This document shows, in pieces, positions 1,582-62,791 of a DNA stretch of 64,000 nt (within the stretch, counting starts at the first letter, position 1; every line of letters starts with the position of its first letter). Source of the DNA: Planctomycetota bacterium (GTDB taxonomy: Bacteria > Planctomycetota > PLA2 > JAEUHO01); contig CBDCWP010000044.1 of the NCBI GenBank assembly GCA_965223505.1, positions 96,001 through 160,000 of the forward strand. The letters are read 5' to 3'. Below the pieces are notes generated by a model. The model saw nothing but the letters and a program-made list of their open reading frames with translations, was not told where the DNA came from and did no database searches. A program made the translations under genes and the position numbers.

Positions 1582-4559
1582 TCGTCCTCGCAGGTGCGGG
1601 AAGTTTCTTTCTCTACATGTTGCTCGGCCTGGGCGCGCTCGTGTTCACGGCGATGCTCGACGGCAAGCTCGGCAAGGAGAAAGCGCTCCTCGTCTACGCC
1701 GTTCTCCTGCTCGTCTTGACCTTCGTGAACGCGCCGGAGGCGCCCGCCGTCGGGCAGCTTCGTGCGGGCGACGAGAACCAGGTGCCGGCGAAGCAGCTCG
1801 ACGCGGTCGGTGATCCCTTCAAGCGACCCGACTACGACTACGATGTCGGCCGCAACGTGTTCCGCGAGTACTCGGACACGCGTCCGCTGCCGCCGGAGCC
1901 GCTCCCGACGCCGCCGTGGATCGAGTTCGCGTTCCCGCTGCCGCCCACGATTCCCGGTCCCGCGCCGGCGCATCGCCGGGTGCTGCGCGGAGAGCTTCCG
2001 GCGCTGAGCGCCGGTGACGGCAGCACGATCGCGGCCATTCCCGAGGCCGTATTCACGGAGTACGAGCCGCAGCCCGAAGACGTCTACGACTGGATCGTGG
2101 ATGGCGGCAAGACGTACTACGTCTACATCCTCGCCATCGACCCGGGTGACGGGCGCTGGGTGGAAGAGAAGGATCCGGGCTTCGACACGCTTAAGTTCCA
2201 GCTCGCCGGCAACGCGCCCGAGAAGGCGAACATGACCGTGAAGTACGCCGTGGTCGGCACAAAGGAAAAGGCCGCCAAGAAGCTGGAGCGCACGGCCGTG
2301 CTCGCGGCGCGCAAGGAGTTCCAGTCCGAGCTCGAGGCCTCGAAGTTCGAAGAGTGGGGCCTGCGTCGCACGGTCGACAACATGTACGTCGAGGCCTTGC
2401 GCAGCTCGGGTCTGAACCTCGATCTCAAGAACGCCAGCATCTCGGCGCTTCGACGCGCGGCGGAGAAGATGGCGGCGGTCGGCAAGACCGGCAAGGAGTC
2501 GAAGGAAGGGTGGCGTCGCGCGGCGACCCTGCTCGAGAAGGCGCTCGCCGAGGCGCGCGTGGCCGCGGCGCCCGCGTTGCGAGCGGACATCCTGCTGTCG
2601 CTGCTCGAGGCCTACCGGGCGTTGAAGGACGACAAGGCGATCCTGACGGCGCTCGCGGAATACGTCCGCACGAGTCCGCGTAGTCAGGAGCCGTGGCTGT
2701 GGCTCGGCGACTTCAGTTTGGCCGAGCAAGGGTTGGCGGACGTGTCGCTGGACTACTACCTGGCGGCGCGCGAGCGCAATGCGGTGAACCCGTACGCGCA
2801 CATCGGCGAGGGCAACGCCCGCGCCTTTGCCGGCGATCACGCCGAAGCGCTCCGCGCCTATCGCAAGGCCGGCGGCTCGGCGCTCGCCAGCTTGAAGCGC
2901 GGCGAGGCGCTGCTTCGTCTGGGCGAGCTCGACAACGCGCGCAGCGAGATCGACAGCGCGCTGGCGAGTGATCCGGCCTACGCGCCGGCCATCCTCGTGC
3001 GCGGCGCGATCTACTACGCCAAGGGCGATCTCGAAACCGCACGGACGTCGTTCGAGCGGGTCGCGACCATGGACGCGGCACGCGACGAGCGGGCAATGGC
3101 CTGCTTCAACCTCGGGCTCACGTGCGTGCGCATGGGGCAGAACGATGCCGCCATCGCGGCGTTCGACGCGTGCGAGAAGGCCATGCAGCTCGGCGCCGCG
3201 CCCGGTCCCTTCCCGGACGAGACCGTGTCGCCCGCGTTGGGCCGCGCGTTCGTGGCGCTCGGGCAGGGCAACATGGGCGAGGTGCGCGCGCAGCTGGGCG
3301 TCGCGCGGCAGGAAGCGCCGCTGTCCTCGTACGTCGAGTTCCTCGCCGGCGTGCTCGGGTACGCCGAGGGAAACACGACGTCGTCGATTCGGGCATTGAC
3401 CAGCGCGCTGGCGCGCGCGAACGACTACCGTGAGCTCGACGGCTGGCTGGCGAAGACGTACCTGGACATCGCGGAGCAGCAGGTCGCGACGGGCGCCGAG
3501 CCGTCCGCGTACAACGAGACGTTCCGCAAGGCCGTGGCGTTCGCGAAGCGGGCCGCCGACAACGAGGAAGACGCGGACAAGCGCGCGACGAAGATGCGCC
3601 TGCGTCAAGCGCTCATCGAGCTGGCCGCGGCCCACGTCCCGACGAAGCAACGCTTCTCGACGGCGTTGGCGACCGCGGACTACGTCATCAAGCGCGTGCC
3701 CGGTGCGCGCGACAACCCCGCGGCGCACGCCATTCGCGGGTACTGCCACTACGGCCTCGGCGGCGACGAGAACGTGAAGCAGTGCATGCGCGACTTCCAG
3801 AAGGTGCTCGACGACGTCCCGGAAGAGGACCAGGGCTACTGGAAGAAGTGGCGTCAGTACGCCGACGCGCGACTCAAACAGGTCAAGCACTGGGACTCGC
3901 TCGAAGAGAAGACGATTCGCTTCGAGGGCACACGGTTGAGCAGCGACTGGGACTACTCCGAAAAGAACGGCGTGCGGATCCTCATCGACGAGGGCACGCT
4001 CGTCTTCAAGGACGAGTCCTCGCGCGACGGCACGTACCTCGAGCCGACGGTCTACATGTTCAATGCCAACGGCAGCGCGATGTTCAAGCGCGAGGCGTTT
4101 GAAGAGGTCACGATGATGGTGCGCGCCCCGAAGCAGATTCAGGGCGTCTCTTCCAACAACGTGACGTTCGGCGTCCAGGTCCGCAGCGGCGGTAGCGGCA
4201 GCAAGGCGCGCACGCCGGGCATCGGCATCTTCTTCGACAAGGCGAAGGTCGCCGTGCGCGTGGGCGGCGGCCAGAACGACGGACTCAAGGACGGCTTGCC
4301 GAAGCGCACGTGGGTCGGACGGGAAGCCGAGCAGGAATGGCCGAGCAACGACTGGGTCGAGGTGCGCATCGCGCGGCTGGATGCCGACAAGGGGCTGATG
4401 GCCGTCTTCTTGAACGGCGAAGAGGTGTTCCGCGACAACGTGTCGGGTTTCAAGCGAACGCGCGGCAAGGCGTCGCTGTGGATCGGCGGGTGGTCCAACC
4501 AGGCCGAGGAATTCCACATCGAGGTCAAGGACATTCGGGTGATTCGGAGGAAGGGCTGA
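1578..4559 (+). CDS. Membrane-anchored TPR-repeat protein with C-terminal beta-sandwich (ConA/LamG-like) domain
   Basis: ATGA overlap at 1578-1581; two N-terminal TM helices; many TPR-like motifs (e.g. AILVRGAIYYAKGDLETARTSFER, ACFNLGLTCVRMGQNDAAIAAFD); beta-rich C-terminus (WVEVRIAR...MAVFLNGEEV). Confidence 0.7.
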   Translation: MIVLAGAGSFFLYMLLGLGALVFTAMLDGKLGKEKALLVYAVLLLVLTFVNAPEAPAVGQLRAGDENQVPAKQLDAVGDPFKRPDYDYDVGRNVFREYSDTRPLPPEPLPTPPWIEFAFPLPPTIPGPAPAHRRVLRGELPALSAGDGSTIAAIPEAVFTEYEPQPEDVYDWIVDGGKTYYVYILAIDPGDGRWVEEKDPGFDTLKFQLAGNAPEKANMTVKYAVVGTKEKAAKKLERTAVLAARKEFQSELEASKFEEWGLRRTVDNMYVEALRSSGLNLDLKNASISALRRAAEKMAAVGKTGKESKEGWRRAATLLEKALAEARVAAAPALRADILLSLLEAYRALKDDKAILTALAEYVRTSPRSQEPWLWLGDFSLAEQGLADVSLDYYLAARERNAVNPYAHIGEGNARAFAGDHAEALRAYRKAGGSALASLKRGEALLRLGELDNARSEIDSALASDPAYAPAILVRGAIYYAKGDLETARTSFERVATMDAARDERAMACFNLGLTCVRMGQNDAAIAAFDACEKAMQLGAAPGPFPDETVSPALGRAFVALGQGNMGEVRAQLGVARQEAPLSSYVEFLAGVLGYAEGNTTSSIRALTSALARANDYRELDGWLAKTYLDIAEQQVATGAEPSAYNETFRKAVAFAKRAADNEEDADKRATKMRLRQALIELAAAHVPTKQRFSTALATADYVIKRVPGARDNPAAHAIRGYCHYGLGGDENVKQCMRDFQKVLDDVPEEDQGYWKKWRQYADARLKQVKHWDSLEEKTIRFEGTRLSSDWDYSEKNGVRILIDEGTLVFKDESSRDGTYLEPTVYMFNANGSAMFKREAFEEVTMMVRAPKQIQGVSSNNVTFGVQVRSGGSGSKARTPGIGIFFDKAKVAVRVGGGQNDGLKDGLPKRTWVGREAEQEWPSNDWVEVRIARLDADKGLMAVFLNGEEVFRDNVSGFKRTRGKASLWIGGWSNQAEEFHIEVKDIRVIRRKG

Positions 4560-5224
4560 TGCGCAACAAGACGCACTCGCAACGCGGATTCTCGTTCATC
4601 GAGATCCTCATCGTGATGGGGATCATCGCCACGTTGGCCGGCCTCACGATCGTCGCCGTCCAGATCTTCGCCCGCGAAGGTCCCGAGATGCAGACGAAGA
4701 CGTCGCTGCAGAAGGTGCAGGCGTTGATCGACACGGTGAAGCGGCAGTTCGAGATCTACCCGCCGCTGGACATCACGCGCTGCCCGAACCTCTACATGCA
4801 GGGGCCGGACAAGATCCGACCGCCGGGGAACGATTCGAACGCCGGCATCGAGGTCGTGTACCAGTCGATCTACTGGGACGGCATGAACGTCGAAGCCGGA
4901 TTCGGCGACGCGGAGCTCGGCAACACCGACGAGGACGAGCTCGGCAAGGCCGTGATCTCGTCGGGGAACCCCGCGTTGCTCGAGATCGTGGACGCGTGGG
5001 GCAACCCGCTCGTCTACATTCCGGCGACGGAGTACGCGAAGGTCGAGTCGAACCCGGTGCACATCATCCTCGGGGACCTGGACCGCGGAGGCGAGCTCGT
5101 CGAAGCGCGACCCTGGAAGAGCGAGCATGGTGGGTACGCCCGTCCGAACTCGTTCCAGCTCTACAGCATGGGGCCGGACGGCGAACCGAACACCGAGGAC
5201 GACATCAAGGCTTGGGAAGGCTAG
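4559..5224 (+). CDS. Prepilin-type N-terminal cleavage/methylation protein, GspG-like pseudopilin
   Basis: QRG|FSFIEILIVMGII class III signal peptide; GspG-type C-terminal motifs DAWGNPLVY and SMGPDGEPNTEDDI; TGATG coupling to the upstream gene. Confidence 0.85.
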   Translation: MRNKTHSQRGFSFIEILIVMGIIATLAGLTIVAVQIFAREGPEMQTKTSLQKVQALIDTVKRQFEIYPPLDITRCPNLYMQGPDKIRPPGNDSNAGIEVVYQSIYWDGMNVEAGFGDAELGNTDEDELGKAVISSGNPALLEIVDAWGNPLVYIPATEYAKVESNPVHIILGDLDRGGELVEARPWKSEHGGYARPNSFQLYSMGPDGEPNTEDDIKAWEG

Positions 5225-5898
5225 CCATCGCAGACGTACGCGCCACGATCCGACGCCGAGCGCAGCGAGGGTACTCGTTCGTCGAGGTGCTCATCGTCAT
5301 GGCGATCATCGCCGTGTTGACGACGCTTTCCATTGCGGCGTTGCGCGTCTGGCAGACGCAGCAGGCGCAGAGTGAGACGAACGAGGCGATTCGGCGGACG
5401 TCGTTCCTGATCACGGACGTCGAGCAACGGCGGGACATGATCCCGCCGATGCGGCTTCGCGACCTGGCGCGGCTGTTCCCGGACGGACCGCGCCCGATCT
5501 CGTCGGACAACGACACCAACGAAGGGATCGAGACGGTGGTGCAGGCCGGAACCGGACCGGGCGTCGCGTCCCGTGTCGATCTTGCCGACCGCATGCTCGG
5601 GAACACGGATAGGGACGTGCTTTCGCGCGTATTCAGCGCGTTGGGACACGCGACGTTGCTCGAGGTGCTGGACGCGTGGGGCAACCCGCTCGTCTACATC
5701 CCGCACATGGAGTACGGCAAGGTCGCGAAGCATCCGGTCACATACGTGCTCGAGAGCGGCGAGGAGGTGGAGGTGCGGCCGTGGCGAAGCGCCTACGGCC
5801 ACTTCGAGCATCCCCATTCGTTCCAGCTCTTCAGCATGGGCCCGGACCGTACGCCCAACACGGACGACGACATTCGGTGGGGGAGGAGCGAGTCGTGA
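5212..5898 (+). CDS. Second GspG-like pseudopilin (tandem paralog); start codon uncertain
   Basis: QRG|YSFVEVLIVMAII; DAWGNPLVYIP and SMGPDRTPNTDDDI motifs. The nearest plausible in-frame start is TTG at 5212. Confidence 0.75.
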   Translation: MGRLAIADVRATIRRRAQRGYSFVEVLIVMAIIAVLTTLSIAALRVWQTQQAQSETNEAIRRTSFLITDVEQRRDMIPPMRLRDLARLFPDGPRPISSDNDTNEGIETVVQAGTGPGVASRVDLADRMLGNTDRDVLSRVFSALGHATLLEVLDAWGNPLVYIPHMEYGKVAKHPVTYVLESGEEVEVRPWRSAYGHFEHPHSFQLFSMGPDRTPNTDDDIRWGRSES

Positions 5899-7100
5899 TG
5901 AGACGTCGGCGCCCCCAGCGGGGCTCTTCGTTCATCGAACTGCTGATGGTCATGGGCGGCATGGCGATCCTGATGGGATTGGCCGTGGGGTTCTTGAGCA
6001 ACATCGGCGGCGCCACGCACCTGGCGCAGGCGAAGGCGCTCATGGTCGAGGCGGCCTACGAGTGCATCGGCAAGAGCAGCGGCGGCGGACGGGCCACGTT
6101 CACGTTGCGCGAGTCGCCCGACGAGGGTCTGCAGCTGCGCGCGATCACGGCATCGCCGGTGCTCACGCACCAGTTCGAGGACCTGCAGTTCGCCAGCGGC
6201 GCGCGCGAGCCGCAGGTGCTCGGCAACGTCGAGTCCGTGCGGGGCGGGCGGACCGGCAAGGCGGCCAAGTTCTCGAGCGGCGGCTATCTCGAATTCGGCG
6301 CCGAGTCGGGCTTCGCGATGACCGAGGGCCTCGAGCTGGAGGCGTGGATCAAGCCCGCCGCCGGCCCGCAGCGGATGTACATCATCCGGGCCGCTTCGCA
6401 TGACGAGGACGTCTACGCCGTCACCCTCGAGCAAGAGGGCCAGGGCAGCGTCTACAAGCTGCAGCTGCAGCTCAAGCTGCGCGGCGCGGAGGAGAGCGAG
6501 CGCACGCCCGGTCTGGTGAAGACGATCCGCACCGAGGGCGCGCCGGTCGTCGCGGACGGCAGCTGGCAGCACATCTCCGTGCGCTTCGACGGCGTCGCCG
6601 CGTCGTTCCGCGTCAACGGCATCGACGTGCCATCCGACGACACCAAGACGAAGCGGCGGGACACCGCGACGGCCGACGTCGCCGAGATGTCCCGCATCGT
6701 GATTCCGGAGTCCGGGGTCCTCAAGCTGACGATCTCCGCGCCGAGCAGCTCGTTCAAGGGCCTCATCGACGGGCTGCAGCTGCGGGGCGTCTTCCGCATC
6801 GTCGAGCAGGAGCTGCCGGGCCGACTGACCGTCATCGCGCCGAAGCTGCCGATCTTCGTCGAGTATGCGAACGGCCGTCTCGACCCCGCGTATCACACGG
6901 ACGCCGTGACGATCCGCTTTCGCGACGAGGCGAACCCCGGCGGCGTCCCGCTGCGCTTGACGTTGGACACGTACGACGTCGAAGCCAAGTTCACCCGGCG
7001 CACGTCCGACGCCGTGCGGCGCTCGTCCGGCGGCGCCGACGACGAGCCCGATCCGGGATCGACGCTCGACCGGCTGAAGAAGAACCAGGGAGGCGGCTAG
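5898..7100 (+). CDS. Prepilin-type protein with LamG/ConA-like domain (minor pilin)
   Basis: QRG|SSFIELLMVMGG N-terminus; LamG-like motifs (LEAWIKP, WQHISVRFDG, FRVNG, FKGLIDGL). Confidence 0.75.
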   Translation: MRRRRPQRGSSFIELLMVMGGMAILMGLAVGFLSNIGGATHLAQAKALMVEAAYECIGKSSGGGRATFTLRESPDEGLQLRAITASPVLTHQFEDLQFASGAREPQVLGNVESVRGGRTGKAAKFSSGGYLEFGAESGFAMTEGLELEAWIKPAAGPQRMYIIRAASHDEDVYAVTLEQEGQGSVYKLQLQLKLRGAEESERTPGLVKTIRTEGAPVVADGSWQHISVRFDGVAASFRVNGIDVPSDDTKTKRRDTATADVAEMSRIVIPESGVLKLTISAPSSSFKGLIDGLQLRGVFRIVEQELPGRLTVIAPKLPIFVEYANGRLDPAYHTDAVTIRFRDEANPGGVPLRLTLDTYDVEAKFTRRTSDAVRRSSGGADDEPDPGSTLDRLKKNQGGG

Positions 7101-7102
7101 CG

Positions 7103-8365
7103 ATGCGCGCTTCCACCCAACGCAGCGAACGCGGCTTCACGATGCTCGAGCTGATCATCGCGATGGCCATCTTCACGTTGCTCGGAACGATGGTCATCAT
7201 GATGATGCGCCAGAGTCTCGACATCTTCTATCAAGGCATCAAAGAGGACGCGCTGTTCAACCGCATGGACACGGCGCTTCCGGTGGTCGCGGAAGACATC
7301 GAGTCGATCTACATCGGCGACGAGTTCGACCCGCCGCCGCCGCCGCTGACCGAAGAGCAGCGCCTCGAGCTCGACCGCATGGGGCAGAAAGAGCGGCCGC
7401 GGGGCAAGCCGTCGGTCGTGCGCATGCGCTCGGGCACGATCATCCTCCAGCAGCAGCCGGAGGGACCGCTCAAGGACTATCCGATGCGTTGGTTCGCGCT
7501 CATCGCGGATCGCACCGGGAGGGTCGATCCGATCCTCGTCAAGGCCGGCAACTACGCCGGGCCCGAGGCCGTCGACTACACGCCGAAGACCGCCAAGGCC
7601 TACCAGCTCGACCGCAGCATCCGCTTCAAGGCCACGGGCGGGTTGATGGAGGTTTGCTACATCGCGGTGCCGGACGAGCGGTTCCCCGAGCTGCTCAGCC
7701 TGTACCGCGGCTACCGCGCGCCGATCGGCGACCCGAAGCACAGCCTGCTGATTCCCGAGAACCTCGACACGATCGAGGAGATCAAGGAACGCTGCACGCT
7801 CGTCGCCAGGGGCCTCCTCTACTTCAACGTCACGTGGCGACGGATCCACGCGACCTCGTGGGAGGAAGACGCCACCGCCGTGGGACAGGACGCGCCGTAC
7901 GTGGGATCGATCTGGGATTCGACGCGCGCGATCGACAAGACGTTTCCCTTGTACGCCGGCGCCGACAGCCTCGTCGACCCCAGCGACGACGTGTTTCCCG
8001 GGTTCGTTCGGCTGCAGCTGTCGTTGAGCCCCGGGGGCAACGCGGGCTACGGCAAGGGCGAGCTCACGCTGGAGAGCGGGATCGGCCCCGACGACACGGA
8101 GCTCTCGGTCTCGGACCCGCAAAAGCTGCTGCAGGGACGCGGCAACGAGCGCTACCTGAAGATCGGCACCGAGTGGATGAGCTACGGCCCGCGTGACGTC
8201 AACACCCAGAAGAAGACGGTGCGTGTCGATCGGGGCGCGCGCGGGACCACCAAGCAGTCGCACGACGCCGGTTGGATCCACGTCGGCATGGACGCCGCGC
8301 AAGAGATCAAGATGCCCGTGTACCGCGACAGCTACACGGTCGGCGTCGGGGAGAAGGGACCGTGA
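7103..8365 (+). CDS. Prepilin-type protein (GspJ/PilW-like minor pilin)
   Basis: ERG|FTMLELIIAMAIFTLL class III signal peptide. Confidence 0.8.
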   Translation: MRASTQRSERGFTMLELIIAMAIFTLLGTMVIMMMRQSLDIFYQGIKEDALFNRMDTALPVVAEDIESIYIGDEFDPPPPPLTEEQRLELDRMGQKERPRGKPSVVRMRSGTIILQQQPEGPLKDYPMRWFALIADRTGRVDPILVKAGNYAGPEAVDYTPKTAKAYQLDRSIRFKATGGLMEVCYIAVPDERFPELLSLYRGYRAPIGDPKHSLLIPENLDTIEEIKERCTLVARGLLYFNVTWRRIHATSWEEDATAVGQDAPYVGSIWDSTRAIDKTFPLYAGADSLVDPSDDVFPGFVRLQLSLSPGGNAGYGKGELTLESGIGPDDTELSVSDPQKLLQGRGNERYLKIGTEWMSYGPRDVNTQKKTVRVDRGARGTTKQSHDAGWIHVGMDAAQEIKMPVYRDSYTVGVGEKGP

Positions 8366-52838: not shown

Positions 52839-52971
52839 CGGCGTTCGCTCGTCCACGTTTTCGGACCCACGTCGAGATAAGTGAACGGCCCGGCGGCGGC
52901 GGGCGACGGCAAAGCCCTGATTCTTGCGGGTTGCGTCGAGGGCACGGTCCGTGCGAGGGAAGCGGACGAAC

Positions 52972-53340
52972 ATGCCCGTAGTCGAAGCTCATACTCCCGA
53001 GCGGCGGAGAGATCGCCGCATTCCCATGACCGCTCGCGTGCGGATTGCGCCGCGCGAAGCCGGGTCCGGACTGCAGGCCGAGCTCGTGGACGTGAGCGCC
53101 GGGGGTCTGCGCGCCCAATGCCGGCCGCCGCCGGCCCTCATGGCGGGCACCGAGGTCGAGGTGGAGATCCGGGTCCACGTGTCCCAGCGGGCGAAGCAGC
53201 AGCCCATGGTCAACCTGCGTGGGACGGGCGTGGTCGTTCGGATCGAGGCGGAAGAAGGCTCGGAGCCCTACGAAGCCGCGCTGCGTTTCACCGGCCCGCT
53301 GGAGCTCCGCGAGCCGTTCGCGCAACTGCTCCTGTTCTAG
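52972..53340 (+). CDS. Single-domain PilZ c-di-GMP-binding protein
   Basis: RRRDRR (RxxxR) and DVSAGG (DxSxxG) motifs. Confidence 0.85.
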   Translation: MPVVEAHTPERRRDRRIPMTARVRIAPREAGSGLQAELVDVSAGGLRAQCRPPPALMAGTEVEVEIRVHVSQRAKQQPMVNLRGTGVVVRIEAEEGSEPYEAALRFTGPLELREPFAQLLLF

Positions 53341-53380
53341 GGGCGCGGATCGTTCGGCCGCCGTCGGTCTCGACGAACCG

Positions 53381-54760
53381 CTACTGGCCGTTGTTGCCGC
53401 GGTTCTTCGCGAGGAGGCCGTACTTGCGCATCTTGTTGAACAGCGTCGTACGGTTGATCATCAACGCGGCCGCTGTCTCCTGACGGTTCCAGCCGTGGCT
53501 GCGCAGGGTCCGCTCGATGATCTCGCGCTCCGGGATCTCCAACGCCTTGCGCAACGGCAGCGTCTGTCCCGGTTCGGGCGCCGAGACCGAGCGCGTCATC
53601 TCCGGCGGCAGGTCGCGCGGCGTCAGCGCGTCCGTGCGGCAGAGAATCACGCCGCGCTCGATCACGTTCTCGAGCTCTCGAATGTTGCCGGGCCACGCGT
53701 GCGCCTGCAGGATCGTCATCGCGTTGTCGTCGATGTGCATCACCGGCTTGTTGTTGTCGTCCGCGAAACGGCGCAGGAAGTGCGCGGCCAACAGCGGGAT
53801 GTCGCCGAGCCGCTCGCGCAGCGGCGGCAGATGCACCGGCACGACACTGATCCGATAGAAGAGGTCGCGGCGGAACGAGCCGTCCTCGACCTTCGCTTCC
53901 AAGTCCTCGTTGGTCGCCAGCACGAGGCGCACGTCGACCTTCACGGTCTCTTCGCTGCCCACGGGCTCGAACGTGCGCTCCTGGATCACACGCAGCAACC
54001 GCACCTGCAGTGCCGGGCTGGCCGTTCCGATCTCATCGAGGAACAGCGTGCCGCCGTCCGCCGCCTGGAAACGACCCGAGCGTGAGCTCGTCGCTCCCGT
54101 GAACGCCCCCTTGGCGTGACCGAAGAGCTCGCTCTCGAGCAGGCCCTCGGGCAATGCGCCGCAGTTCACTTCGACGAACGGCTTTTCCGCGCGATTCGAT
54201 GCATCGTGCACCGCGCGCGCCACCATCGACTTGCCCGTCCCGCTCTCGCCCGTGATCAAGACGGTCGCCCGCGTGGCGGCGACCGCGTCCACGGTCTCGA
54301 AGAGCTTGACGAAATTGGGATCCTTGCCGACCGCCTCGCGCGGGCCCTTGGCATGGGCGAGCTGGGCGCGCAGGTCGGCGTTCTCGGTGCGCAGGCGAAC
54401 CGACTCCACGGCGCGATCGATCACGACGACCATCTCGTCGTCGAGCACCGGCTTGGTGACGTAGTCGAAGGCGCCTTCCTTCATGCCGCGCACGGCGTTC
54501 TCGATCGTGCCGTAGCCCGTGATGAGGATCACCTCGGTGTTCGGGTGCTCTTGCTTGACGCGGCGCAGCACCTCGAAACCGTCGGCGCCCGGCATGTTGA
54601 TGTCGGAGATGACCACGTCGAAGTCCTTCTCGCCCAGCTGACGCAGCGCCTCCTCGGCGTCGCTGGCGGCCTCGACCTCGTGACCGTGCTTGCGCAGCAG
54701 AATGCGCAGCGTGCGCGGCACCAGCGGATCGTCATCGACAATGAGAATGCGAGCGGACAC
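53381..54760 (-). CDS. Sigma-54-dependent response regulator (NtrC/AtoC family)
   Basis: AGGAG-GTG start; receiver, GESGTGKS, GAFTGA, WPGNIREL, HTH. Confidence 0.95.
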   Translation of the reverse strand: MSARILIVDDDPLVPRTLRILLRKHGHEVEAASDAEEALRQLGEKDFDVVISDINMPGADGFEVLRRVKQEHPNTEVILITGYGTIENAVRGMKEGAFDYVTKPVLDDEMVVVIDRAVESVRLRTENADLRAQLAHAKGPREAVGKDPNFVKLFETVDAVAATRATVLITGESGTGKSMVARAVHDASNRAEKPFVEVNCGALPEGLLESELFGHAKGAFTGATSSRSGRFQAADGGTLFLDEIGTASPALQVRLLRVIQERTFEPVGSEETVKVDVRLVLATNEDLEAKVEDGSFRRDLFYRISVVPVHLPPLRERLGDIPLLAAHFLRRFADDNNKPVMHIDDNAMTILQAHAWPGNIRELENVIERGVILCRTDALTPRDLPPEMTRSVSAPEPGQTLPLRKALEIPEREIIERTLRSHGWNRQETAAALMINRTTLFNKMRKYGLLAKNRGNNGQ

Positions 54761-54768
54761 GCGTACTC

Positions 54769-55914
54769 CTACAAGGCTTCCGTCAACGCCCGTTGCGCGG
54801 GCAGGGATACGGTGACGACGGTGCCGCCGTCCATGGGGCAATCCACGCGGATCGTTCCACCGAACTTCTCGATCAGTCGGGCCGAGATCGGCAGCCCGAG
54901 TCCCGTCCCCTTCCCGGGGTCCTTCGTCGTGAAGAAGGGCTCGAACACGCGCGGCAGGACGTCCTCTGCGATCCCCGGGCCGCGGTCGTGGACCTCGATC
55001 ACGAGCCGGTCGTCGTCACGCGATGCACGCACGGTGACCGGGCCGTCGCCGCCGCCCGCATCACACGCGTTGCGCAGCAAGTTCGTCAGCACCTGGTGCA
55101 GGCCGCGCGGGACCGGGATCTTCGAGACGTCACCGCGCAGGTCGCGCTCCATCTCCGGCGAGTCGTCGCCCAGCGCGAGCTGCACGGACGACACCGACTC
55201 ATCGACCAGCGTTTCGAGCGGCTGGGGCGCCTGCTCCACCGCGGCGTTGCGCGAGAAGGTCAACAGGCTCTGCACGATGTCGGCCATGCGCAGTAGGCCA
55301 GCGTGCGCCAGGTCCAGGTACTCGCTCGACTCGGCGTCGTCGTTCAGACGGTCCTGCGTCATGCGCACGCAGCGCAACACCGCGTCGAGGGGGTTGTTCA
55401 GCTCGTGCGCGACGCCGGCGGCGAGCTTGCCGATCATCGCGAGCTTCTCCTGCACCTGCAGGCGCTTGCGCAGATCCTGGTTGGCGTGCAGCGCGTTGTG
55501 GTGCTCGAGCGCCTTCTCGACGGTCGCCGTGATCTCGTCCGCGCGGCAGGGCTTGGTCAGCACGTCGAACGCGCCCAGGCGCATGAGCTCGACCGTGCGT
55601 TCGACCGTGCCGTAGCCGGTGAGCACCACGGGGACGATCGACGGCCAACTCTCGTGCAGCTTGGCGATGAGCTCCTGCCCGTTCATCGGGCTCATCTGCA
55701 TGTCGGTCAACACGACGTGCGGCGGGTTCTCCCGGCAGGCCGCGAGCGCCGTCTCTCCGCCGTCCGCGATCGTCACGCGGTGGCCGGCAATCTCGAGGAC
55801 CTCCCGAAGGAAGTCGCGAACGACCTGCTTGTCGTCCACGATGAGCACGTGCGTCGCACGCACGTCGGTCTCCGGAGGCTGGGCCGTGCCGTTGTTGGCG
55901 GGTTTCCCGTCCAT
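54769..55914 (-). CDS. Receiver-histidine kinase hybrid
   Basis: Receiver (IVDD, TDMQM, KP); AHELNNPL; NLLRNA; DRGPGI; FEPFFTTK; GTGLGL. Confidence 0.92.
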   Translation of the reverse strand: MDGKPANNGTAQPPETDVRATHVLIVDDKQVVRDFLREVLEIAGHRVTIADGGETALAACRENPPHVVLTDMQMSPMNGQELIAKLHESWPSIVPVVLTGYGTVERTVELMRLGAFDVLTKPCRADEITATVEKALEHHNALHANQDLRKRLQVQEKLAMIGKLAAGVAHELNNPLDAVLRCVRMTQDRLNDDAESSEYLDLAHAGLLRMADIVQSLLTFSRNAAVEQAPQPLETLVDESVSSVQLALGDDSPEMERDLRGDVSKIPVPRGLHQVLTNLLRNACDAGGGDGPVTVRASRDDDRLVIEVHDRGPGIAEDVLPRVFEPFFTTKDPGKGTGLGLPISARLIEKFGGTIRVDCPMDGGTVVTVSLPAQRALTEAL

Positions 55915-56055
55915 CGAGTACGCCTGGTGAGAAGTTTGGACACGCACCTTTCGACCCGATGGCCCCTGGATCTTGAGGGAATGGGCCAGGTGGGCGTGAC
56001 GTGTCGTGAAGATTCGACTCGCCGGCGGACTTCGTACGCTGTTCGCCCGCGGGCG

Positions 56056-57522
56056 CTACCGGGTGCGAATTCGGTCCCGGCCGCTGTTCTTGGCCTCGTA
56101 GAGGGCCTCGTCGGCCGCTTTCAGCAGCTGATCGGCTTCCGTTCGGCCGGGGATCAGCGCGGCCATGCCGCCGGACACCGTGATCCGGGTGTGGGGCTGG
56201 CCGGGTCCCAGGGGGACGGTGCGCTGCGCGACCGCCCTGCGGGCCCGCTCCAGCGCCGCCAACGCCATCTCGGCGTGCCCGGCCGCGTTGCCGGGCAGCA
56301 GCACGGCGAACTCCTCTCCGCCCCAGCGGCAGACGAGGTCGGAGTCGCGGAACGCGGACGCGAGCCGCCGTGCCACGGCCACCAGGGCCAGGTCGCCCGC
56401 TTGATGCCCGAAGCGGTCGTTCAGGGCCTTGAAGTGATCGATGTCGATCAGGCCGACGACGAGCCCCGTGCCGGCGCGCGTCGCGCGCTCGAGCTCGCGG
56501 CCCAACGCGCGCTCGAACGCCCGGCGATTGGGCAGGCCGGTCAACTCGTCGCGCGCCGAGAGGTGCTCGGCGCGTCGGAGCCGGCGTGCGTTGTGCAGCG
56601 CGGTGCCGGCACGCCGGCACATGTGCGACCAGGCTGCCAGCGCGTCGGCGTCCGGGGGGCCGTCGTGCGGAAAGCCCGTGAGGTTCAGCACGCCCTCGAC
56701 CTGTCCGTCGCCGCCGAGGGGCAAGACGACGTACGCGGCGCCTGCGTACCCCCGCGCGCCGCCCTTCGAGCCGCGGCCGGTGAGGGCGCGACCCAACGCC
56801 GCCGCGCGGCCTGCGATGCCCGAGCCGATGCTGCAGCGGACCTTGCCGATCAGGGCGTCGTTCCAGCCGACGGCGGCGTCGAGACGCAGCGTGCTACGTC
56901 CGTGCTCGCGGACCATGAGGCTGGCGCGTGCCGCGTCGGACGCCTCGACGAGCGCGTCGAGGATGTACGTCGTCAGCGCCGCCGGGTCGGACATGCGCTG
57001 AAGGCAACCGTCGGTGAACGCTGCCGGGTCCGGGGCCGGATCCCGCGGTGTGCGCTCGATCGCGTCCGTTTCGACGTCCGCGCGCGGCAGCGGTGCCTGT
57101 GATCGAACGCTCTCGGTGGCGGGCGGCGGCAGCGCCGCGTCCGGGGGCGCCGGATCGACGACCGTGACCTCGAGGGCGCGCAACGCGCGGCGCACGGCCT
57201 TCGAGCGGGGAAACCCGAGCACGAGCAGCGCGGCGTCGCCTAGCGCGCGCCGCAGATTGCGAACGGCGGCCCGCGGACGATCGACCAACGCACTCGGCTC
57301 GACGAGGCACCCGTCGAACGCGTGCTGGCTCAGGGCGACGAGGGCGGCGTGCACGTCGTCGGCTTCGGTCACGTGCAGCGCGGCGTCGTGCGCGGCGCCG
57401 AGGCTCTTGCGCAACGACGTCGGCGCGTCGTCGATCCCGACGAGCAGCCAGCGCGCGGGCGCGGTCGGCGGCCGTCCCCTCGGGGTGTCGCCGATGAGAT
57501 GTGCCAACACGTCCGGCGTCAT
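56056..57522 (-). CDS. Diguanylate cyclase (degenerate receiver plus GAF plus GGDEF)
   Basis: DELTGLPNRR, DIDHFK.LND.FGH..GD, RDSD I-site, GGEEF, ADEALYEAK..GR. Confidence 0.92.
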   Translation of the reverse strand: MTPDVLAHLIGDTPRGRPPTAPARWLLVGIDDAPTSLRKSLGAAHDAALHVTEADDVHAALVALSQHAFDGCLVEPSALVDRPRAAVRNLRRALGDAALLVLGFPRSKAVRRALRALEVTVVDPAPPDAALPPPATESVRSQAPLPRADVETDAIERTPRDPAPDPAAFTDGCLQRMSDPAALTTYILDALVEASDAARASLMVREHGRSTLRLDAAVGWNDALIGKVRCSIGSGIAGRAAALGRALTGRGSKGGARGYAGAAYVVLPLGGDGQVEGVLNLTGFPHDGPPDADALAAWSHMCRRAGTALHNARRLRRAEHLSARDELTGLPNRRAFERALGRELERATRAGTGLVVGLIDIDHFKALNDRFGHQAGDLALVAVARRLASAFRDSDLVCRWGGEEFAVLLPGNAAGHAEMALAALERARRAVAQRTVPLGPGQPHTRITVSGGMAALIPGRTEADQLLKAADEALYEAKNSGRDRIRTR

Positions 57523-57530
57523 GGCGTTGC

Positions 57531-59108
57531 TCAGATCTGGTCGGGCGGAAGCGACAGGAGGCCGTCGACGGCCTTCTGGACGAATTGGGAGCCGGCGTTC
57601 GCGGCGATCTCGGCCAGCGCGTCCCGTTTCGAGCGGGACGGCCGGTAGGGCCGGGGGCTGATCATCGCGTCGTAGGCCTCGGCGACGCCGATGATGCCGG
57701 CGCCGAGCGGGATCTCGTCGCCGGAGAGGCCGTCGGGGTAGCCGCCGCCGTCGGGCCGCTCGCGGTGATGCCGCACGAATGCCGCGGCCTCGCCGAACGG
57801 GGCCAGGATCCGGGCGCCGACCACCGGATGCGACTGGACGACTTCGCGCTCGGCCGCCGTGAGCGGGCCGCTGCGCGACAGCACGTGATCGGGGATGCCC
57901 ACCTCGCCGACGTCGTGCAGGCGGGCGGCCGTGCGAATGACCGACCGCAGCCGGGGCGACAGCTCGAGCCGCTGCGCGATCCGATCGGCGATCCGCGCCA
58001 CGCGGTCGGAGTGACCGGGGTAGAAGCCGCCGCGGCCTTCCAGCGTGTCGACGATGCCCGCGGCGACGCGCAGCGCATTCGCTTCGGCCGCCTTGCGGTT
58101 GAGCTCCGACTCGATCGCCGCGCCGAGCGTTTGCGGCACGAGCGACAACAGGTATTCGTCGCCGGCGGCGTCGCAGGAATCCGACGCCGGACGCAGGATC
58201 GTGAGGCCGCCCATCGGCCGACCGGCGACGTCCACGGCCGCGGCCAACCCCTCCATCGGGGCGCCGAACCCGAGGACGAGGTCGCGCAGCACGCCGTTGG
58301 AACGGTTGCGCGCGCGCTGGAGCAGGTCCGGGCCCATGGTCGAGAGCACGCGGTCCGGCAGCGCCCCCGACTTGTGCTCGGCCACGTGGATGCCTTCGTT
58401 CAGATCGATTTCGATGCGCGTCAAGACGCCGCCGAACCGGCGCGACAGGATGCCGGCCGTCGTCTGCAGCACACGTTCGAGGTCGCGGTTGCGCGAGAGC
58501 AGATGCGACAGCTCGCGCAGGAACTGGAGATCACGCACGCGGCGTTCGAGATCCCGGCGGGACAGGCGCAGGTCTTCCTGCGCGCGCTCGAGCTCCTGCT
58601 CGGTCTGCCGGTGCCGGCGCCGCAGCGAGTCGGCCTCTTCACGCACGCGGTCGACCGCGTCCTTCTCGGTGCGCGCGATGCGCCGGGCGGTGAGCACGCG
58701 GCCCACGACGCTGCGCAGGTCCTCGAGGCCGAACGGCTTGGTGAGGTAGTCGTCGGCGCCGTAGCGCAGCGCCTGGACGGCCGTCTCGGTGGACGAGAAC
58801 GCGGTGATCAGGATGCTGCCGAGATCGGGGCGGATCTGCTTCGCCGACCGGATCAGATCGAGCCCGTTCATGCGCGGCATCTTGAGGTCGGTCAGCAGGA
58901 TGCTGACGTCCTGCTCGCGGATGTCCGCCAGCGCGGCGCGTCCGTCGGGGCGGACCGTGACGCGGTACCCTTCCCGGCGCAGCGCGGTCGAGACGAGCTC
59001 GCGGATCTGGGGTTCGTCGTCGACCACCAGGACGTGCGGGCCCGCGTCTTCACCACCCGGCCGGGGCGGGTTCGCAGGGGTTGCCTCGGCTTCGTCGTTC
59101 GGCCGCAT
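57531..59108 (-). CDS. Receiver plus HD-GYP domain protein
   Basis: Receiver (VVDDE, TDLKMP, KP); HSDRV, LHDVG, HP..GA, DGGGYPDGL; some metal ligands are substituted. Confidence 0.88.
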   Translation of the reverse strand: MRPNDEAEATPANPPRPGGEDAGPHVLVVDDEPQIRELVSTALRREGYRVTVRPDGRAALADIREQDVSILLTDLKMPRMNGLDLIRSAKQIRPDLGSILITAFSSTETAVQALRYGADDYLTKPFGLEDLRSVVGRVLTARRIARTEKDAVDRVREEADSLRRRHRQTEQELERAQEDLRLSRRDLERRVRDLQFLRELSHLLSRNRDLERVLQTTAGILSRRFGGVLTRIEIDLNEGIHVAEHKSGALPDRVLSTMGPDLLQRARNRSNGVLRDLVLGFGAPMEGLAAAVDVAGRPMGGLTILRPASDSCDAAGDEYLLSLVPQTLGAAIESELNRKAAEANALRVAAGIVDTLEGRGGFYPGHSDRVARIADRIAQRLELSPRLRSVIRTAARLHDVGEVGIPDHVLSRSGPLTAAEREVVQSHPVVGARILAPFGEAAAFVRHHRERPDGGGYPDGLSGDEIPLGAGIIGVAEAYDAMISPRPYRPSRSKRDALAEIAANAGSQFVQKAVDGLLSLPPDQI

Positions 59109-59290
59109 ACCTCGCTGGATCGGCTCGGATCCTGTAGGACTTCGGCCTCTTTTGCCGCCTGGAATGGGGGCCAAAGCACCGCGGGAACGGACGATGGGCC
59201 CACGCCGGCGCGATTGGACCGTCCGGTCGGACGATCGGGCCGTTATAGGATGGTGGAGGCTTTGTTCCGGGCGCGGCTGGAGTTTCGTAG

Positions 59291-60151
59291 ATGCGCAAGA
59301 ATGTCCTGTTGATGAGCGTCCTGGCGCTCGGAATGGTCCTGACCCTGAGTCCCGGGCTCGCCTGGGGGTGAGGCTGAGGCGCCGGCGGCGGAGGGGGCGG
59401 TCGCTCCCCGTCCATCGGACCCTCGCCCGTCGGGCCGGGCGGTAGCCCGACGACACCCGGTGGATCCCCCTCGGGGCGCGGACGCAGCGTCGGCGCGGCG
59501 CCGCGGCTGACCCACTTCAAGTGGGACGTCGTCGAGATCGGCCCCATGCGCGCGGTCACCGGCGAAGAGGACGAAGAAGCCATCACGCCCGAGAAGCACC
59601 TGCGCAAGGTGCTCGGCTTCGACAAGGCCAGCCGCTACGGCGACAAGCGCCCGACGCTCGTCTACTTCCACTGGCCCCACGAGGACGGCAAGGAAGGCAA
59701 GATCTCCGAGAAGACGTGCCGGATCCTCGACGACGAGGAAGCCGCGCGCTGGTCGCTGTTGTTCCGTTGCGTGCAGATCGACATGGGCACCTCCAAGGAG
59801 GAGTTCACCGAGCTGCTCGGCGCGAAGGACAAGCCGTCGTTCGCCATGATGGACGCCGAGGCCAACATCGTCTTCGAGTTCCCCGCCCACAAGAGCGCGC
59901 GCAAGGTCTCGCAGTCGCTCGAGCAGGGACTGAAGAAGTTCCCCGCGTACTACAAGAAGGTGAAGGCGGACCTGAAGCAGCAGACCAAGTGGATGGCGGA
60001 AGCCAAGAAGCTGCAGAAGGCGAAGAAGCACAAGGAAGCGCTCACCCTCATCGACAAGGTGCGCTTCTCGAACCTGCGGGTCGGCGACGAGTTCGACAAG
60101 GCGCAGGACGTCGGCCGCACGCTCGCCGCGAAGATCTCGCGCCAGAGCTAG
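59291..60151 (+). CDS. Candidate exported selenoprotein (U-G-U after signal peptide) with thioredoxin-like domain
   Basis: ATG 59291 encodes MRKNVLLMSVLALGMVLTLSPGLAWG, then TGA(59369)-GGC-TGA(59375). An open G/P/S-rich linker follows, in frame with ORF 59546..60151 (KRPTLVYFHW...FRCVQID...PSFAMMDAE). The CDS downstream of 59546 is high confidence; Sec readthrough is inferred. Confidence 0.6.
59385..59413 (+). promoter_or_regulatory. Candidate bacterial SECIS hairpin
   Basis: GGGGGC-[GGTC]-GCTCCC stem-loop with a G-first apical loop at 59399, 21 nt after the second TGA and 27 nt after the first. Confidence 0.45.
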
Positions 60152-60173
60152 GGCTCTTCTCAAATCAGCACGC

Positions 60174-61247
60174 CTACCCCGTCAAGGGTAGGCGTAGCGC
60201 CAGCACGGCGCCCTCGTCCGTGGCCCGAACGGCGAGGTTGCCGCCGTGCCCCGCGGCGACCGCGTCGGCGAGCGCGAGCCCCGGGTAGGGCAGGCGCGTC
60301 TCTTCGTGGCTCCAGATGACCGTGCGGCGGTAGTCCGCCAGCTCGCGCTCGTTCAGCATCACGCCGCGGCCGCGAAGCGCTGCCTCGAGCAGGGGCCGGG
60401 ACGATCCGGGCGCGCGTTGCGGCGGCAACGTCCGGACCCGGCCCTCCACCTTCACCGGCGCGTCGCTCGACTGGGCGGCGAGGAAGGTGAGGGCGCTGCC
60501 GAACGCGCCGGTCACCTGTTCCGCGTCCACCGGCAACGGCGGGCCGTCTTCCGGCGGCAGGCCCGTCGTCTGTACCGTGCCGGCGTCGACGGCGGCGTCG
60601 AGCGAGCCGCGCAGCAGCGGGCCGAGCGAGGTCTCGGTCTTCTGCGGCGTCCCCAGGTAGCCGAAGTCGCCGAGGATGTCGACCACGTCGCGCACGCGTC
60701 GCACCTCCGCCTGTAGCTTGTCCCGGTGCGCCTGCGGCACGTCGCCCTCGCCGAGCAGGGACAGCACCTGAAGCGGGTTGTTGACCGCGTGGGAGACCTC
60801 CGAGGCGAGACGCGAGAGCGCTCCGGTGTCCGTCGCGGGCGCTGCCGCCGCGGGCGCGGGAACCAGCAACCGGCGCGCGACGAGCGTGAGCTCCTTGTCG
60901 TAGAACGGCAGGTGAACGTAGGCGTCGGCGCCCGCGGTGAGCGCGCGCAGGGCGGCCCGGCGCTCGCCCTCGGGCATCAGCAGCAGGATGCGCGTGTGTG
61001 GGGCGCGCTTGCGGACCGTCGAGACGAACCCCGCGTCGCGGCGGCGGAAGTTCTCGAGGGAGAGCACGACCAGGTCGCTCGGCTGCTCCACGAATCGCGC
61101 CGTGCCCTCGTACGGCTCGCGCGCTGCCCGCACCGTGCACCCGGCGCGCCGCAGCGCCCGCGCGGCGCTCTTGCGGCCGGGACCCTTGCCCATGACGAGC
61201 AGGGCCGTGTACGGCGTCTCCGACGAGGGCGAGGGGGTGGGAGCCAA
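60174..61247 (-). CDS. Degenerate receiver plus HisKA plus degenerate HATPase (pseudo-kinase); start uncertain
   Basis: VSHAVNNPL H-box retained; receiver phospho-Asp position reads VVLSLE; no N/G1 boxes, only PGLALA...HGG. Confidence 0.7.
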   Translation of the reverse strand: MAPTPSPSSETPYTALLVMGKGPGRKSAARALRRAGCTVRAAREPYEGTARFVEQPSDLVVLSLENFRRRDAGFVSTVRKRAPHTRILLLMPEGERRAALRALTAGADAYVHLPFYDKELTLVARRLLVPAPAAAAPATDTGALSRLASEVSHAVNNPLQVLSLLGEGDVPQAHRDKLQAEVRRVRDVVDILGDFGYLGTPQKTETSLGPLLRGSLDAAVDAGTVQTTGLPPEDGPPLPVDAEQVTGAFGSALTFLAAQSSDAPVKVEGRVRTLPPQRAPGSSRPLLEAALRGRGVMLNERELADYRRTVIWSHEETRLPYPGLALADAVAAGHGGNLAVRATDEGAVLALRLPLTG

Positions 61248-61435
61248 GCGTGCATCCAGGCCGGACGGGTGGTGCGGACCCCGCCCATTCTTTGAATCGT
61301 CGCACATGATGCGGCACTGAGGGGACTCTCCGGCCGCCGGATCGCCGGTTCCTTCGAACCGGACCGGACGGCTGGAAGCCGCAGCCCTACAATCCGCGGG
61401 CCCTTTTCGACGAACCCGCCCCGGGAGACCTGCCG

Positions 61436-62791
<1,356 letters not shown>

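Follow-up and report, generated by a model that had tools for sequence, protein, structure and literature searches.

The stretch of DNA analysed here (the window) comprises 64,000 nucleotides (nt) of a Planctomycetota bacterium (contig CBDCWP010000044.1, positions 96,001 to 160,000 of the forward strand), and the gene in question lies on its + strand at 59291-60151. The frame at 59291-60151 consists of a signal peptide, the codons TGA-GGC-TGA and a sequence that then stays open to TAG at 60149-60151; it encodes 286 residues, with selenocysteine (Sec, U) as U27 and U29. The program-made list of open reading frames (ORFs) contains only 59546-60151 (201 aa) for this gene. A preliminary description of the window had reported the ATG at 59291, the signal peptide, TGA GGC TGA, the 286-codon open frame and a hairpin 21 and 27 nt past the two TGAs; on re-reading, all of these statements about the sequence were borne out, the hairpin distances being exact. 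We hold with good confidence that 59291-60151 is a single gene for an exported selenoprotein that gene callers have cut to its last 201 codons; this degree of confidence applies to the selenoprotein gene model, and the function is weighed separately.

ATG 59291 is the earliest start after an in-frame TAG (59288-59290) and is preceded at a distance of 8 nt by a Shine-Dalgarno-like GGAG (59279..59282, + strand, as are all parts of the gene given below). The following 26 codons (59291..59368) encode the signal peptide MRKNVLLMSVLALGMVLTLSPGLAWG, with an MRK n-region, a hydrophobic core and a c-region G-L-A-W-G; 2 K/R residues stand ahead of the core, and the maximum Kyte-Doolittle mean over 11 residues was 2.55. 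The first in-frame UGA (Sec27, 59369..59371) is TGA in 7 other loci of the comparison described below and Cys in the 6 loci of the C-U type, and the second (Sec29, 59375..59377) is kept as TGA in the 7 other loci of the U-G-U type; at the position neighbouring this second site, loci of the C-U type carry U and those of the U-C type carry C. A hairpin resembling a selenocysteine insertion sequence (SECIS) follows at 59393..59408 (6-bp stem, 59393-98/59403-08; loop GGUC, 59399-59402). It lies within the codons for a flexible linker rich in Gly, Pro, Ser and Thr (residues 30-64, 59378..59482), which contain no in-frame ATG, GTG or TTG; in the AlphaFold2 (AF2) model the predicted local distance difference test score (pLDDT) of the linker is 43-55, and its length and sequence differ among homologues. 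The conserved N-terminal segment of the folded part (RSVGAAPRLTHFKW..., 59483..59641) includes a strand (79-81) and two short helices, lies mostly 5′ of the gene-caller ATG at 59546, and has nearly invariant T74 and W78, with pLDDT of about 95 from residue 71. The thioredoxin-fold core (residues 118-214, 59642..59932), assigned from AF2, Foldseek, hhalign to Thioredoxin_7 proteins and invariant columns, contains FHWPH (59666..59680) at the site of the WCxxC of its relatives. A C-terminal three-helix TPR-like tail (residues 218-285, 59942..60145; AF2 helices 218-243, 247-258 and 266-285) precedes the true stop codon TAG (60149..60151). In the read-through frame, the G+C content at codon position 3 (GC3) reaches 0.88 in the signal peptide, 0.86 in the linker and 0.96 in the ORF.

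When homologues of the read-through protein were sought, 53 proteins were obtained, the window's own among them, and the named ones were hypothetical proteins of Planctomycetota. In their alignment, a conserved RSVGAAPRLTxFxW reaches about 20 residues upstream of ATG 59546, and from this block back to the TGAs the codons ATG, GTG and TTG are all absent. Because protein sequence is conserved upstream of ATG 59546 in a stretch without start codons, the TGAs must be read through. All 52 foreign homologues start within the Gly/Pro/Ser linker, after the motif, and none of them has a signal peptide (0/52); this is the expected outcome where gene callers are halted by an upstream stop codon, and the truncation foreseen in the preliminary description was found in 52/52 database homologues. 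TGA otherwise serves as a stop, terminating 9/34 GC3-supported ORFs of the window and ending the family gene itself in L008, L009, L013 and L014 of the loci introduced next.

Genomes of GTDB species representatives were scanned, and 16 loci (L001-L016) were obtained, all from Planctomycetota metagenome-assembled genomes (MAGs). L012 has no upstream region (its contig ends), and the comparative set was made up of 15 loci and the window, that is, 16 genes. In 15/15 loci with upstream DNA, a Met or Val start and a hydrophobic signal peptide are followed in the same frame by an in-frame TGA. The motif is G-U-G-U-G in L001-L007 and the window (8 genes), (G/D)-C-U-G in L008, L009, L010, L011, L013 and L014 (6 loci, with a literal G-C-U-G in L009, L010, L011, L013 and L014), and G-U-C-G in L015 and L016 (2 loci). 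Codons flanking the TGAs vary synonymously among loci (GGG/GGC before, GGC/GGT between), and such changes in independent assemblies indicate that the TGA-containing frame is the coding one. A GGAG/GAGG-type site stands 5-8 nt ahead of the signal-peptide start in 16/16 genes, and all 16 N-termini have at least one K/R and then a hydrophobic core (maximum 11-residue Kyte-Doolittle mean, 2.08-3.09). On a tree of the family the motif types clustered, with 7 changes against a shuffled mean of 12.5 (0/200 shuffles as low). Support was 100/100 for the U-C pair, 89/95 for five of the six C-U loci and 98/98 for six of the eight U-G-U genes; the placement of the window, L007 and L008 was not resolved.

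Criteria for a selenoprotein given in bioRxiv 10.1101/2022.07.06.499078 are that orthologues of different organisms share the site of the in-frame TGA, that there are at least 10 examples, and that TGA stands at 100% of the proposed Sec sites. In the present family TGA was found at the motif in 16/16 genes, the frame being uninterrupted by any other stop. Cys and Sec are exchanged at both positions among the C-U, U-C and U-G-U types, and similarity extends to both sides of the Sec site in 16/16 genes (signal peptide on the 5′ side, G-rich linker and domain on the 3′ side). The preliminary description had proposed to look whether homologues keep TGA-x-TGA or carry Cys instead: TGA-x-TGA is kept in 7 loci, the others have C-U (6) or U-C (2), and distant relatives have CC or C.

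The bacterial SECIS consensus given in PMC13188914 has a stem of 4-16 bp, a loop of 3-9 nt with a G within its first two positions, a distance of 16-37 nt from UGA to loop, and a minimum free energy of ≤-7.5 kcal/mol. For both UGAs the hairpin of the window fits this model, with distances of 21 and 27 nt, a 6-bp stem, the loop GGUC and -9.5 kcal/mol, and 12/16 family genes passed when only contiguous stems were considered; with bulges allowed, the 48 nt past the last UGA folded at -17.1 to -33.6 kcal/mol in 16/16. The loop lies 16-21 nt from the last UGA and, in U-G-U genes, 24-27 nt from the first; both distances are inside 16-37 nt, in keeping with the earlier suggestion that one SECIS may serve two UGAs. 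An invariant GC-GGUC-GC core was present in 12/16 genes; the loop of L010 and L011 is CGGGU, the passing register of L001 has a 7-nt loop containing GGUC, and the U-C genes (L015 and L016) have stems of 8-9 bp. GGUC is also the loop of the SECIS of Escherichia coli fdhF, where G-U is contacted by SelB.

In a 12-sequence alignment of the hairpin (10 distinct rows), the five inner pairs were paired in 10/10, and both-side changes were found at three pairs. The covariation score was 0.339, as compared with 0.152 for shuffled alignments (0/500 as high), and was also above those of all slid registers. The loop codon was GGT at 11/11 in-frame sites, whereas GGT accounts for 57/485 Gly codons in these genes and, in L009 and L013, the loop GGT is the sole GGT codon; the codon phase of the hairpin is shifted in L008, where A-V-A is encoded in place of G-G-R. 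The bias of the loop codon and the phase change in L008 speak for the RNA, not the peptide, as the object of selection. As a control, 1129 arbitrary TGAs of the window were treated in the same way, and 145 of them (12.8%) passed the SECIS model, so that the hairpin alone is weak evidence; GGUC as the loop of the best hairpin was found at 2/1129 window TGAs, exactly the two of this gene.

The folded part was modelled with AF2 using an alignment of 58 sequences as input. The mean pLDDT was 84.4; residues 1-37 were below 50, blocks up to residue 70 were ≤55, and most of 71-286 reached 95-99. The model has a beta-alpha-beta-alpha-beta-beta-alpha core (122-214; strands 122-127, 159-164, 183-187 and 193-198) and then three long helices (218-285). 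The thioredoxin fold is present, with the conserved Pro before strand 3 as the invariant P182, and at the start of helix 1 the family has FHWPHED and neither CxxC nor CxxS; it is related to Thioredoxin_7 in fold and profile without being a canonical oxidoreductase of that kind. All top matches of Foldseek against the PDB were of the thioredoxin fold, the best being E. coli YbbN (3qou, E 3.3e-4), followed by its Salmonella homologue; further matches were atypical thioredoxins, DsbD-C, DsbH and an exported cytochrome c biogenesis-related domain. Thioredoxin_7 (PF13899) was found in 15/61 weaker profile matches that were scanned, three of these also having TPRs, and hhalign to two Thioredoxin_7+TPR proteins gave probabilities of 90% and 94%. 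The WCxxC of one of them (P0140, whose match runs into the C-terminal tail) aligns, with gaps, to H130-E131, so that the active-site cysteines are lost in the family and FHWPH stands in their place. The thioredoxin-like domain without CxxC that the preliminary description had proposed was thereby recovered by AF2, Foldseek and hhalign.

Residues H127, H130, E149, R153, P182, C143 and C160 are invariant or nearly invariant, H127 and H130 being invariant across the 58 sequences. C143 and C160 may be joined in a structural disulfide, judging from where the model places them, at the far end of helix 1 and that of strand 2. The Thioredoxin_7+TPR protein P0165 has a single active-site Cys (FHVTYQQWC) and may represent a stage between canonical relatives with CxxC and the present family. 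The read-through protein had no Pfam match above cut-offs, no PDB chain was matched by its sequence, and in NCBIfam release 20.0, which holds curated selenoprotein models, 0/16 members reached a cut-off (best chance matches, E ≥0.007). For the plain 201-aa ORF, the nearest named clusters in the ESM Atlas carry the Thioredoxin_7/DsbH-type domains and are themselves common in Planctomycetota, with scores of 0.86-0.88 that are to be read as leads only. Attachment as a lipoprotein was considered and rejected. In the lipobox pattern, [LVI][ASTVI][GAS]-C, the mature protein starts at the Cys; the residues before the motif (A-W-G, E-G-G, A-D-A-G, R-A-D and F-A-Q) fit no lipobox, and in 10/16 genes the supposed lipobox Cys site is Sec and not Cys. 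An A-x-A or A-x-G stands one to three residues before the motif, which would fit cleavage by signal peptidase I.

Distant relatives were collected by an exhaustive profile search of 1.84 billion representatives, which gave 119 proteins at E ≤1e-3, 38 of those at ≤1e-30; most of these 38 also begin after the motif. Thirteen sequences from this search were inspected, and four of them were full-length with Cys directly after the signal peptide: P0139 (AFAQ-CC-GGGC), P0110 (AFAQ-C-GGGG), P0081 (APS-C-GGGGG) and P0067 (AEA-C-TGAGGG). With Cys occurring both in TGA-bearing loci and in distant relatives, Sec alternates with Cys at both levels. The N-terminal arm of P0139 is rich in Cys and Gly and has five Cys (QCC-GGG-C-P...GGG-C-PTGK-C-P); it resembles a metal-binding tail more than a redox pair.

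Several known systems were compared with the family. Exported Thioredoxin_7/DsbH-type proteins (PF13899 and PF03190), some with C-terminal TPRs, are alike in fold and domain order with detectable homology, and the FxCV Cys of strand 2 (C160) is common to both; they differ in that here WCxxC is replaced by HWPHED and the reactive Sec/Cys stands on an N-terminal tether after the signal peptide. The best full-length structural matches are of the E. coli YbbN (CnoX) type (3qou, and 3qdn at E 5e-4, over 183-187 aligned columns), where a CxxC-less thioredoxin fold and a helical repeat tail occur in both; the TM-score is however 0.29, the root-mean-square deviation about 10 Å and the identity 13-15%, and the domain arrangement is unlike. 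YbbN is cytoplasmic and has neither a signal peptide nor Sec.

In animal thioredoxin reductase (TrxR), Gly-Cys-Sec-Gly forms a selenenylsulfide that passes electrons to substrates, according to PMC10298544. The arm of the present family is similar in having adjacent, Gly-flanked Cys-Sec on a flexible terminal extension (G-C-U-G in five loci), whereas here the arm is N-terminal, the protein is exported, the fold is a CxxC-less thioredoxin, there is no flavoprotein, and the window itself has U-G-U. The TrxR arrangement, GCUG at the C-terminus of a pyridine-nucleotide disulfide oxidoreductase, was not found in the family, and the resemblance is an analogy of mechanism only, without homology. The HgcA N-terminal extension and the SAO proteins, as presented in bioRxiv 10.1101/2022.07.06.499078, were likewise spotted through entries truncated at a TGA aligning with Cys and have adjacent Cys-Sec, and the CU motif of HgcA likewise lies in an N-terminal extension missed by gene callers; their folds and gene contexts are unrelated to those here, their NCBIfam models match 0/16 members, and U-x-U is not described there. 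The UxxU forms listed in PMC13188914 (a Prx-like oxidoreductase, a putative mercuric reductase-like metal-binding protein and the FmdB family) also have two close UGAs with, presumably, one SECIS; their spacing is UxxU within a folded active site, as against U-x-U on a tether here.

In the 2026 review of prokaryotic selenoproteomes (PMC13188914), a search by term gave no UxU, UGU, GCUG or Planctomycetes. Planctomycetes are not mentioned in the deep-Sep and BSepDB papers, and the supplementary family list of BSepDB, which lay outside this comparison, may bear on novelty. Nothing matching came from full-text searches on selenoproteins of Planctomycetota, on bacterial proteins with a diselenide or two Sec, or on N-terminal Gly-Cys-Sec-Gly. 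As neither the literature nor NCBIfam gave a match, the family was treated as undescribed, and it is very probably a previously undescribed selenoprotein family present in many Planctomycetota genomes. Its decoding mechanism is ordinary; what is new is Sec on the N-terminal tether of an exported, CxxC-less thioredoxin fold, and two UGAs one codon apart. Since public entries are only truncated "hypothetical proteins" without signal peptides, the location, length and chemistry annotated for the protein are all wrong.

As the comparison shows, translation begins at ATG 59291 behind the Shine-Dalgarno site and, once the signal peptide has been made, has to pass two UGAs six bases apart before the conserved domain is reached. 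For the further course of events the following is proposed. By the established bacterial pathway, the GGUC-loop hairpin would recruit SelB with Sec-tRNA(Sec), and both UGAs would be read as Sec. After export, cleavage by signal peptidase I would leave the mature N-terminus within one to three residues of U-G-U, and a Gly/Pro/Ser tether of about 35 residues would join U-G-U to the CxxC-less Thioredoxin_7-type domain and the TPR-like tail. The two selenols (Cys and Sec in sister clades) would alternate between a diselenide or selenenylsulfide and the reduced form, and the arm would swing either to periplasmic partner proteins or into the groove in which the thioredoxin-like domain takes up its substrate.

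By analogy, the most likely function of the motif is tentatively that of a tethered redox centre. A redox arm is preferred because the Gly-flanked Cys-Sec matches the redox end of TrxR and because the attached domain has a thiol-disulfide oxidoreductase fold without cysteines of its own. A fuller proposal, more speculative in its detail, is that the N-terminal Sec-Gly-Sec would be a tethered diselenide centre that replaces the lost CxxC, a periplasmic counterpart of the TrxR arm made with one GGUC SECIS for both UGAs, in a family nearly all of whose members depend on selenium; this near-universal dependence is suggested by the occurrence of full-length Cys-only forms only among distant relatives. 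Of the exported selenoprotein put forward in the preliminary description, the observation was confirmed and the interpretation largely upheld by the comparison of 15 loci, while the redox role of the arm is something that we infer. If the proposal is true, a selenoprotein family would be added to a phylum with a barely described selenoproteome, the U-x-U motif would be established, and reactive selenols would be found outside the cytoplasm, carried by a terminal tether instead of a folded active site. The family would offer a natural system for asking how one bacterial SECIS serves two closely spaced UGAs and what a diselenide or selenenylsulfide can do, compared with a disulfide, in an oxidising compartment, and it is a worked example of selenoprotein discovery from start-less conserved sequence upstream of called genes.

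A number of observations weigh against the selenoprotein gene model or the redox function proposed for it. With contiguous stems, L002, L003, L005 and L006 miss the cut-off of -7.5 kcal/mol; in these four the GGUC hairpin is retained on a stem of 5 bp, and energy is the sole criterion on which they fail. The two U-C loci carry other loops (GGC and GGA). The energy of the window hairpin is not above chance (z 0.43 vs shuffles), and GC-rich runs of Gly codons readily form hairpins; as the energy was not significant, stability was not used as evidence, and significance comes from the comparison with 15 independent loci. The motif region is of low complexity, and the distant single-Cys relatives align to U only approximately; P0110 and P0081 have Gly after Cys, where C-U loci carry U, and P0084 and P0091 have a signal peptide and no Cys motif. 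The arm is disordered in the AF2 model (pLDDT <55). The genes selA, selB and selD and a tRNA-Sec were not found within the 64-kb window or in the flanks of the 16 loci; Sec-insertion genes are reported for several Planctomycetes in PMC4807772. Gene neighbours of the family are not conserved and give no functional clue; as they differ in every clade, gene context is uninformative on function.

The main rival to a redox arm keeps the same gene model and takes the U-G-U/C-U/U-C motif as a ligand site for a soft metal or metalloid (Hg, Cu, Ni, As or an organometallic). The invariant His127 and His130, which stand where CxxC once was, may complete this site. In some enzymes, Ni or Cu is bound by a Cys-Gly-Cys tripeptide. 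The CU/CC motifs of the SAO system and the HgcA N-terminal extension are interpreted as metal or organometallic sites in bioRxiv 10.1101/2022.07.06.499078, and the Cys-rich, Gly-rich N-terminus of P0139 (QCCGGGCP...GGGCPTGKCP) and the invariance of H127 and H130 in 58 sequences would suit such a site; no metal transporter, chaperone or resistance gene is, however, conserved beside the gene in the 15 loci, and metal-binding families in Pfam and NCBIfam were unmatched. A metal site appears possible but rather doubtful.

Were the TGAs true stops, a 26-codon leader ORF would end at 59371 and a separate cytoplasmic protein would be made from ATG 59546 or from a non-canonical upstream start. Such a reading is the one given by the standard code and by every database entry, and no Sec machinery was seen in the window. 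It is very unlikely nonetheless, for ATG, GTG and TTG are absent between the TGAs and the conserved block, a start at ATG 59546 removes a conserved and confidently folded strand, and no GGAG-type site precedes 59546, whereas one is present at 16/16 signal-peptide starts. Leader, TGAs and domain are moreover in one frame in 16/16 genes, and a conserved signal peptide would be purposeless on a 26-residue peptide.

Read-through of UGA as a residue other than Sec, by near-cognate Trp, Cys or Arg tRNAs or by local reassignment to Gly, could be imagined from the position of the motif inside a poly-Gly run and from the Gly after the single Cys in P0110 and P0081. TGA ends 9/34 window ORFs and 4 family genes, which excludes reassignment; both sites alternate with Cys and not with Gly among TGA-bearing loci, and leaky reading would need no covarying hairpin with a G-rich loop at SECIS distance, which makes this explanation highly improbable. 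A pseudogene or an assembly or sequencing error, in which compensating indels near the homopolymer G5 run at 59364-59368, immediately 5′ of the first TGA, would give WGGEAEAPAAEGAVAP (and for which a peak of GC at codon position 2 in 59378-59460 might speak, though it is accounted for by Gly and Pro codons), can practically be dismissed, because an identical TGA-GGN-TGA recurs without change of frame in seven MAGs of independent assembly and one TGA is present there in eight others, the alternative frame runs into a TGA near 59508 and could continue only through a second shift, purifying selection is seen throughout (GC3 0.86-0.96, domain conserved), and the frameshifted reading (WGGEAEAP...), named in the preliminary description as what would overturn the gene model, is excluded by same-frame synonymous changes in independent assemblies.

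The surroundings of the gene were scanned as follows. Rfam at gathering thresholds gave nothing in the window; with ARAGORN, the window yielded no tRNA and the 16 loci a tRNA-Ile alone. Pfam was run on 33 GC3-supported ORFs of the window and on 33 locus-flanking ORFs and revealed no sel genes and no conserved neighbour, and a promoter/terminator scan of 59000-60400 called nothing. The window was also scanned for further in-frame TGAs with coding signal on both sides; the selenoprotein gene itself escaped the filter owing to the high GC of its Gly-rich linker at codon position 2, and the three other candidates (53481 +, 63610 + and 41358 -) are artefacts, all antisense to real genes.

A c-di-GMP/sigma-54 cluster adjoins the gene (52924-59107, both strands). 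It comprises a PilZ protein (52924-53340, +), a REC-sigma54 activator (53381-54841, -), a GAF-GGDEF cyclase (56056-57522, -) and a REC-HD-GYP-type protein (57531 onward, -), and a second REC-sigma54 activator lies at 61436-62791 (+). As the preliminary description had stated, the selenoprotein gene is divergent from this cluster, namely from the HD-GYP gene; the pairing is absent in the other 15 loci. The HD-GYP gene is listed as a 641-aa ORF (57531-59456, -) starting at GTG 59456, which overlaps the signal peptide, the TGAs and the hairpin on the opposite strand. REC begins only at residue 142 of this ORF, and the first 110-120 residues, rich in Arg, Pro and Ser, look non-coding; translation probably starts in truth at the Met of MRPNDEAE, close to 59107, leaving an intergenic gap of about 180 bp. 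Downstream, a perfect 9-bp inverted repeat (CGCCTACCC ... GGGTAGGCG, 60172-60198) lies between convergent stops (60151, and the end of a minus-strand ORF at 60174); it is terminator-like, lacks a T run, and was not called by the terminator scan. The minus-strand ORF (60174-61307; 377 aa, GC3 0.92) has no Pfam match at E ≤1e-5 and is convergent with the selenoprotein gene, beside the sigma-54 activator.

Other neighbours were noted at single loci or in close relatives. A ClpC-type AAA+ ATPase (Clp_N, two AAA, UVR) lies divergently upstream in L003 (2951-5899), L005 (3003-5675) and L006 (2829-5675), all on the - strand and at these three loci only; as these are closely related U-G-U loci, the adjacency probably reflects synteny among near kin and no functional tie. 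Downstream of the family gene in L005 stands an ATP:guanido phosphotransferase (McsB-like). Both U-C-type genes have genes for molybdo- or tungsto-enzymes beside them: L015 has an aldehyde:ferredoxin oxidoreductase fused to ThiS (5851-8292, -), and L016 has the 2Fe-2S and molybdopterin subunits of a xanthine-dehydrogenase-type enzyme (1445-4724, +).

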